Below, one piece after another: positions 47,936 through 52,223 of a DNA stretch of 64,000 nt (within the stretch, counting starts at the first letter, position 1; every line of letters starts with the position of its first letter). Source of the stretch: Escherichia coli (GTDB taxonomy: Bacteria; Pseudomonadota; Gammaproteobacteria; Enterobacterales; Enterobacteriaceae); the NCBI RefSeq assembly GCF_041886205.1, contig NZ_CP169029.1. One strand, given 5' to 3'. The notes beneath the pieces are model-generated. The model was given only the letters and a program-made list of their open reading frames with translations. It was not told where the DNA came from and did no database searches. Position numbers and translations under genes: made by a program.

Positions 47936-47989
47936 TGAACCGCCCCGGGAATCCTGGAGACTAAACTTCCTGAGAAAGAGGTAAACAGG

Positions 47990-48316
47990 ATGACTAAAAA
48001 TACTCGTTTTTCCCCCGAAGTCCGTCAACGGGCAGTCCGTATGGTTCTGGAAAGTCAGAGCGAATATGACTCACAATGGGCGACAATTTGTTCCATTGCT
48101 CCAAAGATTGGCTGTACGCCGGAGACTCTGCGTGTCTGGGTTCGCCAGCATGAGCGGGATACCGGGGGCGGTGATGGAGGGCTCACCACCGCTGAACGTC
48201 AGCGTCTGAAAGAGCTGGAACGTGAAAATCGTGAACTGCGCCGCAGTAACGATATCCTTCGCCAGGCTTCCGCTTATTTTGCGAAGGCGGAGTTCGACCG
48301 CCTCTGGAAAAAATGA
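47990..48316 (+). CDS. IS629 transposase OrfA (HTH)
   Basis: 108-aa [22 protein letters not shown]...; ends in an A-run slippery site. Confidence 0.85.
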
Positions 48317-49203
48317 TGCCACTGCTGGATAAGCTGCGTGAGCAGTACGGGGTCGGACCGCTATGCAGCGAACTGCATATTGCCCCGTCAACGTATTACC
48401 ACTGTCAGCAACAGCGACATCATCCGGATAAACGCAGTGCCCGTGCGCAGCGCGATGACTGGCTGAAGAAAGAGATACAGCGCGTATACGATGAAAATCA
48501 CAAGGTATACGGTGTGCGTAAAGTCTGGCGTCAGTTGTTACGGGAAGGTATCAGAGTGGCCAGATGCACTGTGGCACGTCTCATGGCGGTTATGGGACTT
48601 GCCGGTGTTCTCCGGGGTAAAAAGGTCCGTACGACCATCAGCCGGAAAGCCGTTGCCGCAGGCGACCGCGTAAACCGTCAGTTCGTGGCAGAACGACCTG
48701 ACCAGCTGTGGGTGGCTGATTTTACTTACGTCAGCACATGGCGGGGCTTCGTCTATGTGGCGTTCATCATTGATGTGTTTGCCGGATACATCGTGGGGTG
48801 GCGGGTCTCATCGTCCATGGAAACGACATTCGTGCTGGATGCACTGGAGCAGGCGTTATGGGCCCGTCGACCGTCCGGCACGGTCCATCACAGTGATAAA
48901 GGTTCTCAGTATGTATCGCTGGCCTACACACAGCGGCTTAAGGAAGCCGGATTACTGGCATCAACAGGAAGTACAGGCGACTCGTATGACAACGCGATGG
49001 CGGAGAGCATCAATGGTCTTTACAAAGCGGAGGTAATACACCGTAAGAGCTGGAAAAACCGTGCAGAAGTGGAACTGGCCACACTCACGTGGGTGGACTG
49101 GTATAACAATCGACGATTGCTGGAAAGGCTGGGCCATACTCCTCCGGCAGAAGCAGAAAAAGCTTATTATGCTTCCATCGGAAACGATGATCTGGCAGCC
49201 TGA
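48313..49203 (+). CDS. IS629 transposase OrfB (DDE integrase domain), -1 frame relative to OrfA
   Basis: 296-aa ORF with DDE motif region; overlaps orfA in the -1 frame as in IS3-family elements. Confidence 0.85.
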
Positions 49204-49245
49204 GTTCACAGATAAAACACTCTCCAGGAAACCCGGGGCGGTTCA

Positions 49246-49760
49246 TCCAGTGTTTTCCATGTCTGCTTGTATTCGCGATGAATGGCAGCAATGACCGGGT
49301 TGATTTTTCCTGTTGAATTTTCAGTGTGCTGTTGATTGGCTCTGGCACGGGCGAGATCAACAACAGACGTGTATTTTCCGGCTTCCTTGCGTTCACCTTC
49401 GCGACGTTTTTTCCAGATGCGCATCTCTGCCTGAATTTCGGGCCATTTGGCACCAGGCTTACATTTATGCTTAACCCACCCGATGGCATGCAGCTTAAGC
49501 TCCGGATACATAGCGTTAACTTCTGGCATTTTCATCAACGCTTCAACGATATGGCCGTCGAATGTTGCCATGTCTTCCTGCAACAATTCCTGTGCGCTAA
49601 TCACCATATCAACAGTGATGTTTTCACATGTGTCGAACTTAACCATGACAGCGTTCTGTACTTCAGGGGCTAGGTTGTCAAAAGTGACGTTCATCGGATC
49701 GGATTCAGTCTCGACCGGGACAAAGGAAGCAGACGCCTCATCCCAGCGGTTTTCCTGCAT
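49246..49760 (-). pseudogene. 5' portion of the IS629-interrupted phage exonuclease gene
   Basis: ORF beginning MQENRWDEASASF... runs into the IS629 right end; its last ~12 called codons are IS-derived. Confidence 0.6.
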
Positions 49761-50017
49761 ATATTCAGCATCCCAGGAATCGAGGGCAGGGCGGGGTATA
49801 CCGGGTTTATCCTCGCAAACAAGAAATTTATAAGCGCAGTCCTGAGCAGCCGGATAATGTTCCAGGAATTGCCAGTGAAATTTTGCGCGGGCGCGACGTT
49901 CATCACCGGCTTCAATGGCAGTGGCTACAGTGAGACGAACTTCGCCGTGCGCTTTCGTGTTGTGTGCCTGCTTTTAACCACGTCAGGCGAGGTGGTATCC
50001 TTAAAATCACCACAGTT

Positions 50018-50593
50018 TTAAGGATTCATTAAGCAATGTCGCAACCACCAATAAATCCGCTTAAGAACATGAAAATTGATTACTGGTATAAAGCGCTTAC
50101 AGTTGTTGGCGCTGCGTTGTTTGTCTTTAATGGAACGTCTTTTTTTGACAGATATCCCGTTGTTCCATTGGATTTTTTGTCCTCCGGCATCTTTTTTATT
50201 GGTTTGGGGGAGTGGATTAATCACCCTCTCAAAGTGAGATTTATTGGTCCTGGAGTTTGGACTCGTGGATATAATCGTTCTTAGTGCGCACTCGGTATCA
50301 TCTTCGACATACTTGGTTGTTTCCTGATTGTTACAGGAGTCGTCAAGTTCTTCTGATGTAAAACCGCAAATGGGGCACGTAACGGGAATTTTGAAAAGCG
50401 TTTCTCCGGGTTCCAGAACAAAATTTTCTGCGGTCTGATTTTGCTTCTCATATTTGTGCTCCGCGTCATTGTGAGAGCACATTCTTATTCTGAGTGCCTG
50501 TTTAAACTCACTGAAGCTGAGAGCTTCTTCGCCTTCGGCAAGACCTTCGAAGTATTCTTCGTAAGCCTTTTCCATGATTGTGTCGAAATCCAT
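50018..50593 (-). CDS. hypothetical prophage early-region protein with CxxC zinc-ribbon-like motif; 3' extent uncertain
   Basis: ATG at 50593 preceded by RBS AGGTGAG; N-terminal ~100 aa protein-like (…VTCPICGFTSEE…), distal part low-complexity and overlapping a plus-strand ORF. Confidence 0.4.
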   Translation of the reverse strand: MDFDTIMEKAYEEYFEGLAEGEEALSFSEFKQALRIRMCSHNDAEHKYEKQNQTAENFVLEPGETLFKIPVTCPICGFTSEELDDSCNNQETTKYVEDDTECALRTIISTSPNSRTNKSHFERVINPLPQTNKKDAGGQKIQWNNGISVKKRRSIKDKQRSANNCKRFIPVINFHVLKRIYWWLRHCLMNP

Positions 50594-50594
50594 A

Positions 50595-50831
50595 TCACTC
50601 ACCTGAGTTTCTTTCCAGCCAGCGACGGGCACCATTTTCGGTTTTAAACGTTTTGCTTTTGGTATACGTCATCGCGGTGAACGTACCGTCCTGGTTGGGG
50701 AACACGCCACATACCGGAGATTCGCTGTTGCCAAGATCGATAGTATCCATGCTGACCTCATTTCCCCTTAACGCCGGGGTAGCGGAACAAAAACCTGCTG
50801 CATAGTTATTAAAGTTGAACCCTGCCGTCAT
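50595..50831 (-). CDS. hypothetical small prophage protein
   Basis: 78-aa ORF whose stop lies 1 nt before the next ATG (translationally coupled arrangement). Confidence 0.4.
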   Translation of the reverse strand: MTAGFNFNNYAAGFCSATPALRGNEVSMDTIDLGNSESPVCGVFPNQDGTFTAMTYTKSKTFKTENGARRWLERNSGE

Positions 50832-51047
50832 GTTCTTACGCCTCGGGCTGGCTACTTAACCCCTGACCACTGCCTGGTAACTCGAAGTATTGCCCTGCAT
50901 TCTGTGGGGCGGGGTGGGTGGCAGGCATATAATGTACTTTGCGTTCATTGTTGTAAAGTACTTTTAGTACATTTTGTGTGTAAAAAAATGAGATGGGATA
51001 AAGTGAAGCACAAACCCGGAGGAAGGCGCTACCGGATTTATGCTGGT

Positions 51048-51467
51048 TTAAGAGGCTTTTTGTTTTTTCTTTCGTGCTAACTCTTCGTAAATTGCATTGT
51101 ACTTCTGTTTTTTCTCTTCAAGAGTTTTTAAAAGTTCATCTGTCTCACTGTCAGGGAGCTCGTCCAGAAGGTCAATGATGATTTTTTGTCTTGGATTTAA
51201 CTCCTGATAGAAACGTACCTGTCCACTTTCTTCTGTATCCTCTCCCAAAAGATAGGTTGGTGTTGTTCCTATTAGTGTTGCTAATTCCCTTAATTTCTCC
51301 CGGCGAGGAATTGTTTCGCCATTAAACCATTTGCTAACCGCTTTTGGTGTTAATTTCATTCGACGGGCAATTTCTGCCTGCCTTCCATGTTGTTCATAAC
51401 CAGCGTTTTCACAGGCTAGCGCAAGCCTACTGGCGAACTCTTTACGCGCTTTATCTTCATGAACCAT
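51048..51467 (-). CDS. prophage repressor, XRE-family HTH (DicA/cI-like)
   Basis: 139-aa ORF with HTH (…MKLTPKAVSKWFNGETIP…); divergent from a Cro-like gene. Confidence 0.75.
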   Translation of the reverse strand: MVHEDKARKEFASRLALACENAGYEQHGRQAEIARRMKLTPKAVSKWFNGETIPRREKLRELATLIGTTPTYLLGEDTEESGQVRFYQELNPRQKIIIDLLDELPDSETDELLKTLEEKKQKYNAIYEELARKKKQKAS

Positions 51468-51546
51468 AAGTTCAATGATATTCGCTCTTGAATGTACTGT
51501 CAGTTCTGTTATAGCATGTACTCAAAGTTCACACTGTGAGGGTGAT

Positions 51547-51801
51547 ATGAACCAGAAAACACTTGAAGATGTAATCAAAACTGTTCGCGTTGCTGTTGTG
51601 GCCGACGTTTGTGGTGTCAGCCAAAGAGCAATCTATAAATGGATGGATAACGGAAAATTGCCTCGCACAGAATATACCGGCGAAACAAATTACGCTGAAA
51701 AAATCGCTCTTGCATCAAACGGATTATTTTCTGCCGATGCAATTTTAACTATTGGCAGGAATAAAACTACTACGAAAAAGCTGATGGGAGTTGATTCATG
51801 A
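51547..51801 (+). CDS. Cro/YdaS-like HTH protein
   Basis: ATG at 51547 with RBS GAGGGTGA; HTH (…VADVCGVSQRAIYKWMDNGKLP…); ATGA overlap with next gene. Confidence 0.65.
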   Translation: MNQKTLEDVIKTVRVAVVADVCGVSQRAIYKWMDNGKLPRTEYTGETNYAEKIALASNGLFSADAILTIGRNKTTTKKLMGVDS

Positions 51802-52223
51802 AAATCAAGCATGAACACATCCGCATGGCGATGAATGCCTGGGCGCATCCGGACGGCGAAAAAGTACCGGCTGCGAAAATTACCAAAGCGTATTTCGAGC
51901 TGGGAATGACGTTCCCGGAACTGTATGACGACAGCCATCCGGAAGCCCTGGCTCGCAATACTCAGAAAATTTTCCGCTGGGTGGAGAAAGACACCCCTGA
52001 TGCGGTTAAAAAAATTCAGGCGTTGTTACCAGCTATCGAAAAAGCAATGCCACCTCTGCTGGTGGCCCGAATGCGCAGTCATAGCTCAGCCTATTTTCGG
52101 GAACTAGTGGAGACGCGGGAACGACTGGTGAGAGACGCTGATGATTTTGTCGCAGTGGCGATCGCTGGTTTCAACCAGATGAATCGTGGTGGCCCTGCAG
52201 GAAATATTGTGGTTGTGCATTGA
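51798..52223 (+). CDS. YdaT-like prophage protein
   Basis: 141-aa ORF beginning MKIKHEHI..., same length class and context as Rac YdaT (recalled). Confidence 0.6.
   Translation: MKIKHEHIRMAMNAWAHPDGEKVPAAKITKAYFELGMTFPELYDDSHPEALARNTQKIFRWVEKDTPDAVKKIQALLPAIEKAMPPLLVARMRSHSSAYFRELVETRERLVRDADDFVAVAIAGFNQMNRGGPAGNIVVVH

Follow-up and report, generated by a model that had tools for sequence, protein, structure and literature searches.

What is encoded where two long open reading frames (ORFs), one on each strand, run through each other codon for codon? The question is raised by a decayed prophage in Escherichia coli, within a stretch of 64,000 nucleotides of contig NZ_CP169029.1 (assembly GCF_041886205.1), which in its full length is called the window here. 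Between an exonuclease gene and a repressor gene, an initial annotation made from the letters of the DNA alone had listed two minus-strand ORFs, at 50595-50831 and 50018-50635, and one plus-strand ORF of 82 amino acids (aa) at 50036-50284. All three lie where they were placed, the minus ORF at 50018-50635 being a mechanically called frame whose likely start is the internal ATG at 50593, behind the Shine-Dalgarno (SD) sequence AGGTGA. The same annotation could not tell which strand is coding over 50018-50285. The overlap that it saw there exists but extends further, as a plus-strand gene of 106 codons runs to 50356, and its question can now be answered: in the overlap the plus strand is conserved as protein, whereas the minus frame is kept open with its amino acids unconserved. 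The pair formed by the plus gene and the minus ORF that envelops it is referred to below as the cassette, and its parts are the following:

50036..50356, plus strand: gene of 106 codons for a three-helix membrane protein, of which 82 aa are left in the window (homologues, alignment, AlphaFold2 (AF2) model and codon positions)
50282..50284, plus strand: amber codon TAG (C to A at 50283), which ends the plus ORF early and on the minus strand changes Arg to Leu (CGA to CTA)
50018..50593, minus strand: early-operon ORF of 191 aa with a YdfB-like N-terminus, a CPxCGF knuckle and an antisense tail (ORF listing, RefSeq, PHROGs)
50357..50593, minus strand: the non-overlapping N-terminal 79 codons of this ORF (ratio of non-synonymous to synonymous change (pN/pS), codon positions, AF2)
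50360..50389, minus strand: IPVTCPICGF, a single zinc-knuckle-like CPxCG motif that adjoins the plus-gene stop codon, immediately upstream of the overlap
50018..50356, minus strand: tail of the minus ORF, about 112 codons in the exact reverse-complement-codon frame of the plus gene, stop-free and predicted to be disordered

A protein search with the 82-aa plus-strand ORF returned 58 relatives, which run 24 residues longer at the C-terminus. Indeed, the TAG is codon 83 and replaces a Ser codon (TCG) of the relatives, and the frame is intact beyond it up to the TGA at 50354-50356. The C-to-A change at 50283 is common to strain B7A and to loci L054-L056 of IMG/VR (L numbers denote the loci compared), and a second change, G46D (G to A at 50172), is private to the window copy. 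Homologues keep a constant length of 102-111 aa, those at 40-67% identity in unrelated genomic contexts; identities are 82% in Escherichia sp., 67% in an enterobacterial prophage type, 56% in Yersinia, 46% in Herminiimonas and 43% in Reinekea, and the motifs DYWYKA and GLGEWxNHP are invariant in the family alignment. When 1.84 billion cluster representatives were searched with a profile, 464 clusters were found at E<=1e-3, nearly all of about 100-115 aa. The AF2 model of the plus protein has helices at residues 17-32, 42-62 and 85-105, with a mean predicted local distance difference test (pLDDT) score of 83.7; these three helices and the 102-111-aa homologues bear out the small hydrophobic membrane protein that had been predicted on this strand. 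Both motifs and helices 1-2 are present in the window copy; helix 3 is lost to the amber codon, its codons still standing in frame downstream. On these comparisons, the plus strand carries a real, conserved gene for a predicted three-helix membrane protein of about 106 aa, inactivated or truncated in the window by the amber codon. The plus protein belongs to no Pfam, NCBIfam, PHROG or PADLOC family; in particular, neither it nor 15 family members had a significant Pfam match of any kind, SieB included, PADLOC gave none, and a BFVD fold search with the model returned nothing significant (best E=0.18). Outside phages, the homologues of Herminiimonas (L006, 5397-6179) and Reinekea (L007) sit in co-directional clusters of small uncharacterised genes, the former adjoining a DUF5677 gene.

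The overlap is exactly codon-aligned, with position 2 opposite position 2, and spans the entire plus gene, so that each stop in the minus frame is a TTA, CTA or TCA codon in the plus gene. In diverged copies, substitutions follow the order plus position 3 >> position 1 > position 2. The differences at the three plus positions number 11, 7 and 35 between L002 and L012 (identity 0.84 in the plus and 0.60 in the minus protein), 14, 8 and 56 between L068 and L072 (0.84 and 0.43), and 27, 12 and 70 between L068 and L071 (0.71 and 0.36). As the differences are concentrated at plus third positions, the plus strand is the protein-conserved one in the overlap. Upstream of it, the minus-frame third positions are those that vary most between lineages (83, 70, 148 and 67, 39, 86), and from the patterns on either side the coding signature is thus seen to change strand at the plus-gene stop codon. 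These data bear on the possibility that the minus ORF, annotated in HannyBb, mEp390 (gp39) and Bcep176 (gp33), is the sole gene and the plus ORF a spurious shadow. The minus ORF is the one that phage annotators and PHROGs list, and the plus ORF is interrupted in the window. However, the substitutions track plus-frame codon positions, distant full-length plus homologues exist where the antisense frame has 5-17 stops, and the plus family has invariant motifs. The idea that the minus ORF alone is real, contradicted by the codon-position patterns and the distant homologues, was rejected as scarcely credible.

The minus ORF, in turn, is constrained as protein upstream of the overlap. In its 79-codon head pN/pS is about 0.25, with 10 synonymous changes over 135 opportunities against 10 non-synonymous over 543 in 45 E. 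coli-type copies, and AF2 models helices at residues 3-17 and 27-54 of the head with pLDDT 84-91. Residues 1-34 are those of K-12 YdfB, and the following approximately 45 residues end in IPVTCPICGF, within which lies CPIC, the CxxC motif correctly pointed out before. IPxxCPxCGF is kept as amino acids despite synonymous changes (CCC/CCT/CCG, TGC/TGT, GGT/GGA, TTT/TTC), and the knuckle is carried by E. coli variants, Escherichia sp., Yersinia, the L009 type, Edwardsiella (L066) and, as KCPRCGC, by L069. A second group (L068, L071, L072, L082 and mEp390 gp39) has PGSV...(S/T)VTL(I/T)GW at the knuckle position and no cysteines, and the other Cys and His residues of the minus protein are variable across the lineages of the first group. 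The zinc-ribbon-like character that had been proposed is not supported, as just one CPxCG knuckle is conserved where two, with four ligands, are needed, and the sister group of the same ORF is cysteine-free there. The knuckle protein had no Pfam match, and AF2 pLDDT around the motif is about 62. In the library searches with both proteins, matches to DUF7103 (E~0.1) and to the PADLOC CARF profile (E=0.02) were too weak and were dismissed as noise. Searches of Pfam, NCBIfam, PHROGs and PADLOC with the minus ORF returned only PHROGs of its own type, phrog_35040 along its full length and phrog_2061 at the N-terminus, and RefSeq annotates WP_000344958.1 at the equivalent position in strain SCU-313. 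The whole frame from 50018 to 50593 is thereby assigned, nominally, to a full-length protein, which the initial annotation had named as an outcome that would speak against it; the entry in question (phrog_35040/WP_000344958.1) is hypothetical, and no characterised family covers the frame.

An SD sequence and a start codon are found in most lineages 33-37 codons ahead of the overlap, and the minus proteins are accordingly 151-165 aa long. In the Qin type, the cassette ORF is fused in frame to the N-terminus of ydfB; L014/P0009 has in addition an in-frame fusion of the long ORF to ydfC. As to membership of YdfB, residues 1-34 of the 42-aa K-12 protein match, after which the window ORF continues for 157 residues and has no SSSAKSNG end; the Prokaryotic Genome Annotation Pipeline (PGAP) labels the B7A copy a partial ydfB pseudogene. 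All in all, the minus ORF is a genuine early-operon ORF with a good RBS (ribosome-binding site), whose N-terminal 35-80 aa or so, including IPxxCPxCGF, are selected as protein.

Inside the overlap, the minus-frame pN/pS is about 0.8. If the minus protein constrained the synonymous sites of the plus gene, codon identity at conserved plus residues would exceed chance; it is at the chance level (mean z ~0.2), and in pairs with L066, where the antisense ORF is absent, it is at least as high. The tail is therefore unconstrained as an amino-acid sequence. In the AF2 model of the minus protein, residues 82-171 come out as disordered (pLDDT <50) and a C-terminal helix is predicted at 174-189; the tail is hydrophilic and basic (K+R 20, D+E 12, mean hydropathy -0.99). 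The initial annotation had described a low-complexity distal half overlapping the plus ORF; the overlap is there, but what looked like low complexity is the antisense translation of a membrane-protein gene. Viewed as an antisense pair, both frames are open in most relatives, and purifying selection in the overlap is found in the plus frame only. The tail is thus as free in sequence as chance allows, and selected, as far as the comparisons indicate, solely for the absence of stop codons.

The same data can be set against true dual coding, in which the tail would be functional, extending the knuckle protein by a disordered basic stretch whose length or composition matters and whose exact sequence does not. 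Its hydrophilic, basic composition and predicted helix would suit such a role, as would the avoidance of stops across lineages and the consistent total length of the minus proteins in non-Qin lineages. However, composition and helix are those that result when a hydrophobic gene with its invariant DYWYKA motif is read in antisense, the plus-synonymous sites have no excess conservation, minus-frame pN/pS in the overlap is as high as stated above, and the Edwardsiella form does without the tail altogether. Indeed, the minus gene of L066 stops right after the knuckle (...CPICGFTSE) and no minus-strand gene follows, the plus gene being there the final gene of a co-directional plus-strand block; a homologue search with this short-form protein gave a single Edwardsiella cluster. 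Dual coding is hence considered unlikely, although it retains an appreciable share of our belief.

The absence of stops was evaluated in loci from IMG/VR and GTDB genomes, with expectations derived from local codon usage. The loci were retrieved with the plus protein only and are therefore unbiased as to the antisense frame. Enterobacterial prophage copies have zero antisense stops in 106 codons, despite 8-11 Leu, 4-6 Ser and a GC content of 40-46%, whereas the homologues of Herminiimonas and Reinekea have 5-6 in the same comparison. Among 26 independent lineages, 14 are stop-free against 1.6 expected (Poisson-binomial P=5e-14), and among the genes with GC<0.5 the count is 7/17 against 0.42 expected (P=5e-9); with codon frequencies halved, the stop-avoidance test gave P=2e-3. 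The distribution is bimodal, as the lineages that are not open have 2-17 antisense stops each, and co-directional homologues have 5-17. TTA, CTA and TCA are absent altogether from the E. coli cluster, L003, L009, L069, L071, L068/72, L082 and others, with 2-5.4 expected in each, and many open lineages have saturated synonymous sites. In most of the open lineages examined, the open frame ends 4-19 codons beyond the plus start codon, and therefore covers the RBS of the plus gene too.

It might be argued that this openness is a coincidence of codon bias, in which only the plus gene and the short minus head have a meaning and read-through arises accidentally from the codon choice of the plus gene. 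For a single genome the argument has some force, since 7.5% of 106-codon gene windows, taken from the genes of the window, have no antisense-aligned stop, so that one open copy is mildly unusual; high-GC lineages are fairly often open by expectation (P0 0.15-0.28), and PGAP usually leaves the region unannotated. However, stop-free lineages of low GC and saturated synonymous sites number at least seven where 0.42 are expected, stop counts are bimodal, and the open frame is invariably in phase with a conserved upstream domain and a start codon. Moreover, the Leu codons in use are CTT, TTG and CTC, not the optimal CTG, which points to specific avoidance rather than to general optimisation. Coincidence is thus held to be improbable; what counts is recurrence across diverged lineages, not openness in a single genome, and the recurrence does not appear to be due to chance.

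Whether the frame is open goes along with how the cassette is placed. In a lineage context table that rests on crude gene calls, closed lineages have mostly co-directional neighbours, whereas in open lineages the plus gene mostly faces backwards within an operon. The cassette of E. coli, Yersinia and the L009 type heads the early-left operon beside the repressor (pL side); that of mEp390 is flanked by cro and cII in the early-right operon, and that of L068 follows cII and precedes a Rha/KilAC gene (both on the pR side). In all of them the minus ORF points the same way as the early operon. The antisense ORF of the mEp390 cassette is gp39 (L095, NC_019721.1, 28963-29418); the membrane-protein gene within it has no annotation, and its start codon seems to be TTG (MQNPLSKLALDAWYK...). 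The Qin prophage of K-12 (L093, MG1655 1648665-1649041) has, in place of the 517-bp cassette of L001 4151-4667, a 396-bp segment with the C-terminus of ydfB and with ydfC, and the 42-aa K-12 YdfB looks like an N-terminal remnant of the longer ORF joined to a different sequence.

These observations can be accommodated by an explanation in which the membrane-protein gene would be a prophage-expressed passenger, inserted backwards into an early operon, and selection on the minus strand would act on unbroken translation across it. Ribosomes trailing the RNA polymerase would prevent termination by Rho/NusG or degradation of the early transcript, and the early genes downstream (dicF/dicB/exonuclease, or cII and replication genes) would thereby stay expressed. 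Convergent transcription, in parallel, would turn the membrane-protein gene off once lytic growth begins. As far as sequence can tell, we give an even chance to the core of this explanation, namely that the tail stays translatable because this spares the early transcript from being handled by Rho/NusG as untranslated antisense RNA. The fuller picture is put forward somewhat more tentatively: a mobile phage cassette whose enveloping antisense ORF would be selected purely for translatability, as a 'ribosome bridge' past a backward gene, and would silence that gene in lytic growth. In-frame fusions to ydfB upstream (in the window) and to ydfC downstream (in L014) fit the idea of continuous translation.

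Several points weigh against the ribosome-bridge explanation. The codon-usage null was built from few neighbouring ORFs per locus, and if the empirical rate of 7.5% is taken as the null instead, we estimate that the significance falls to about 1e-4. A stop is found in the minus tail of some E. coli copies (L041, L044/50, L059), which shows that decaying prophages can do without the tail. In L070 and L092 the frame is closed despite the antisense placement, and the rule on orientation is therefore not absolute. Scans for a promoter of the plus gene and for a terminator between the convergent genes gave matches in chance-level numbers, none of which could be assigned. Lastly, selection on the length or composition of the tail, as a disordered basic extension, would likewise bar stops and leave the sequence free.

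The surroundings of the cassette in the window are those of an early operon. DNA searches identify the region as an E. coli lambdoid prophage of the Qin/dicBF type, decayed, with strain B7A (L001) and phage HannyBb (L002) as the nearest complete relatives. The locus is the promoter-proximal head of the early-left operon, with the exonuclease gene on one side and the helix-turn-helix (HTH) repressor on the other, as originally placed; the parallel with the kil/ral/sieB-type genes of lambda is right as to the early-left position and wrong as to the type of operon, which has ydfA and a ydfB-like gene as in Qin/dicBF. Three features are found here besides the cassette:

51048..51467, minus strand: HTH repressor of the prophage immunity region, DicA/RacR-like (Pfam HTH_3, E=1.8e-9; annotated as helix-turn-helix in B7A)
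50929..50957, minus strand: candidate early-left (dicB-type) promoter, TTTACA-17-CATTAT (consensus scan; same site in B7A)
50595..50750, minus strand: ydfA (DUF1391), 51 aa (Pfam, likeness to K-12 YdfA, PGAP annotation)

The promoter remains a mere candidate because matches to the consensus over the region number no more than chance. YdfA matches Pfam PF07151 (DUF1391) with 90.1 bits (gathering cut-off 27.3, E=6.7e-26) over residues 29-76 of a 78-aa ORF and is close to K-12 YdfA (MDTIDLGN...); the mechanical ORF at 50595-50831 reaches 27 codons beyond the accepted start (MTAGFNFNNYAAGF...). Its stop codon and the ATG at 50593 are 1 nt apart, in the arrangement TGA-T-ATG, and the translational coupling of the two minus ORFs that had been suggested is therefore retained. 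L013 and L014 keep the ydfA leader, and in them the cassette ORF begins at the position of the ydfA start, with the same RBS (TAAGGGGAAATGAGG). Upstream of the ydfA leader in the window, a 30-aa minus-strand ORF at 50856-50948 has no family match. A search of 49000-52000 with Rfam found no RNA family at E<=1, so that neither dicF nor another small RNA accounts for the region.

On the other side of the cassette, the operon has been damaged, as summarized by the following features:

49926..49933, no strand: deletion junction between 8-bp direct repeats TACAGTGA (blastn against B7A and HannyBb, junction alignment)
49243..49925, minus strand: 5' fragment of a YdfE-type exonuclease gene that has lost its start codon (comparison with B7A and HannyBb)
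47936..49245, plus strand: IS3-family insertion sequence (IS) of 1,310 bp with ends TGAACCGCCCCGG and a 3-bp target duplication, TCC, which splits the exonuclease gene

The deletion removed 935 bp, corresponding to B7A L001 3174-4108, with dicF, dicB, ydfD and the first 21 exonuclease codons; 49761-49933 is the leftover 5' part of the exonuclease gene, whose start codon went with it. In agreement, Rfam finds DicF in B7A (72.5 bits) and none in 49000-52000 of the window. The junction occurs in 0 of 5,426 complete E. coli genomes and is therefore private to the source genome. The transposase frames of the IS are the ORFs at 47990-48316 and 48313-49203, and B7A has a related IS, annotated 'IS3 family transposase', at another site in the same exonuclease gene; from its length and ends, the element at 47936-49245 is presumably IS629-like, as a candidate assignment. 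Between dicF and dicB of B7A (L001 3674-3883) there is a sub-threshold Rfam match to STnc100 (34.5 bits for a gathering score of 47, E=3.9e-5), in the part that is deleted from the window. What the window retains is a relic of the arrangement, with a nonsense mutation in the plus gene and, downstream, an operon hit by the deletion and by the IS.

The cassette itself is poorly recorded. The 321-bp plus gene, equivalent to 50036-50356, occurs in 804 of the 5,426 complete E. coli genomes, and in a RefSeq sample 33 of 40 records annotate nothing at the cassette gene; the remaining ones are inconsistent, with either the minus 191-aa ORF (WP_000344958.1) or the plus 106-aa ORF (e.g., WP_247162388.1). 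Phage records annotate only the less conserved strand. The entries mEp390 gp39, Bcep176 gp33, HannyBb CDS0038, phrog_35040 and WP_000344958.1 are all the minus ORF of the cassette, and in none of the five is a conserved opposite-strand gene mentioned. A search of the literature on the RefSeq accessions and on ydfB/ydfC did not find the cassette described, nor was any report found of an ORF kept apparently only to carry ribosomes over an oppositely oriented gene. Long antisense overlaps are a contested subject in bacteria and phages, and the locus offers an unusually clean comparative case with overlap of a whole gene, in which one strand has a protein-level signal and the other a signal of 'no stop codons' only, recurrent and tied to the orientation of the cassette in the operon. 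Should selection indeed act on translation, phages would have here a new means of keeping a gene expressed in lysogeny in reverse orientation within an essential early operon, and what is selected over more than 100 codons would be the open frame and not its product. The plus protein, in turn, stands for a widespread unnamed family of small membrane proteins, and is a candidate for a role in superinfection exclusion or abortive infection.

Several known systems resemble the cassette in part. SieB-type genes of lambdoid prophages likewise consist of a small membrane-protein gene beside the immunity region that faces the early-left operon; Rac sieB lies between kilR and racR in opposite orientation. 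The plus gene sits where exclusion-type genes expressed by the prophage are expected, although the plus protein has no sequence relationship to Pfam SieB or to any family. The dicBF operon of K-12 Qin shares with the window the repressor and promoter context, ydfA, the first 34 aa of YdfB and the downstream ydfE-type exonuclease gene, but it has neither the membrane-protein gene nor the CPxCGF ORF, and the window instead has no dicF, dicB or ydfD; as published, the operon comprises ydfA, ydfB, ydfC, dicF, dicB and ydfD only (PMC5069750). The mEp390 version differs in belonging to the early-right operon and in having the PGSV...TLxGW N-domain instead of the CPxCGF knuckle.

Antisense overlapping genes have been described in E. 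coli O157:H7, namely ano (PMC5960689) and three more (PMC9927249), and they have in common with the cassette a long ORF that lies antisense to an established gene and is skipped by standard annotation. Those cases were based on RNA-seq and Ribo-seq in one strain and mostly concern young ORFs inside a larger gene (PMC5960689, PMC9927249), whereas the evidence for the cassette is comparative, the longer ORF envelops an entire conserved gene, and the overlap is without amino-acid constraint. The cassette would thus be a new variant of antisense gene overlap, whose rationale is possibly new as well. By analogy, that rationale may lie in the general rule by which Rho/NusG terminate nascent RNA that is untranslated or antisense (PMC11551753, PMC5909445), which is the reason proposed here for the open frame opposite the membrane-protein gene.

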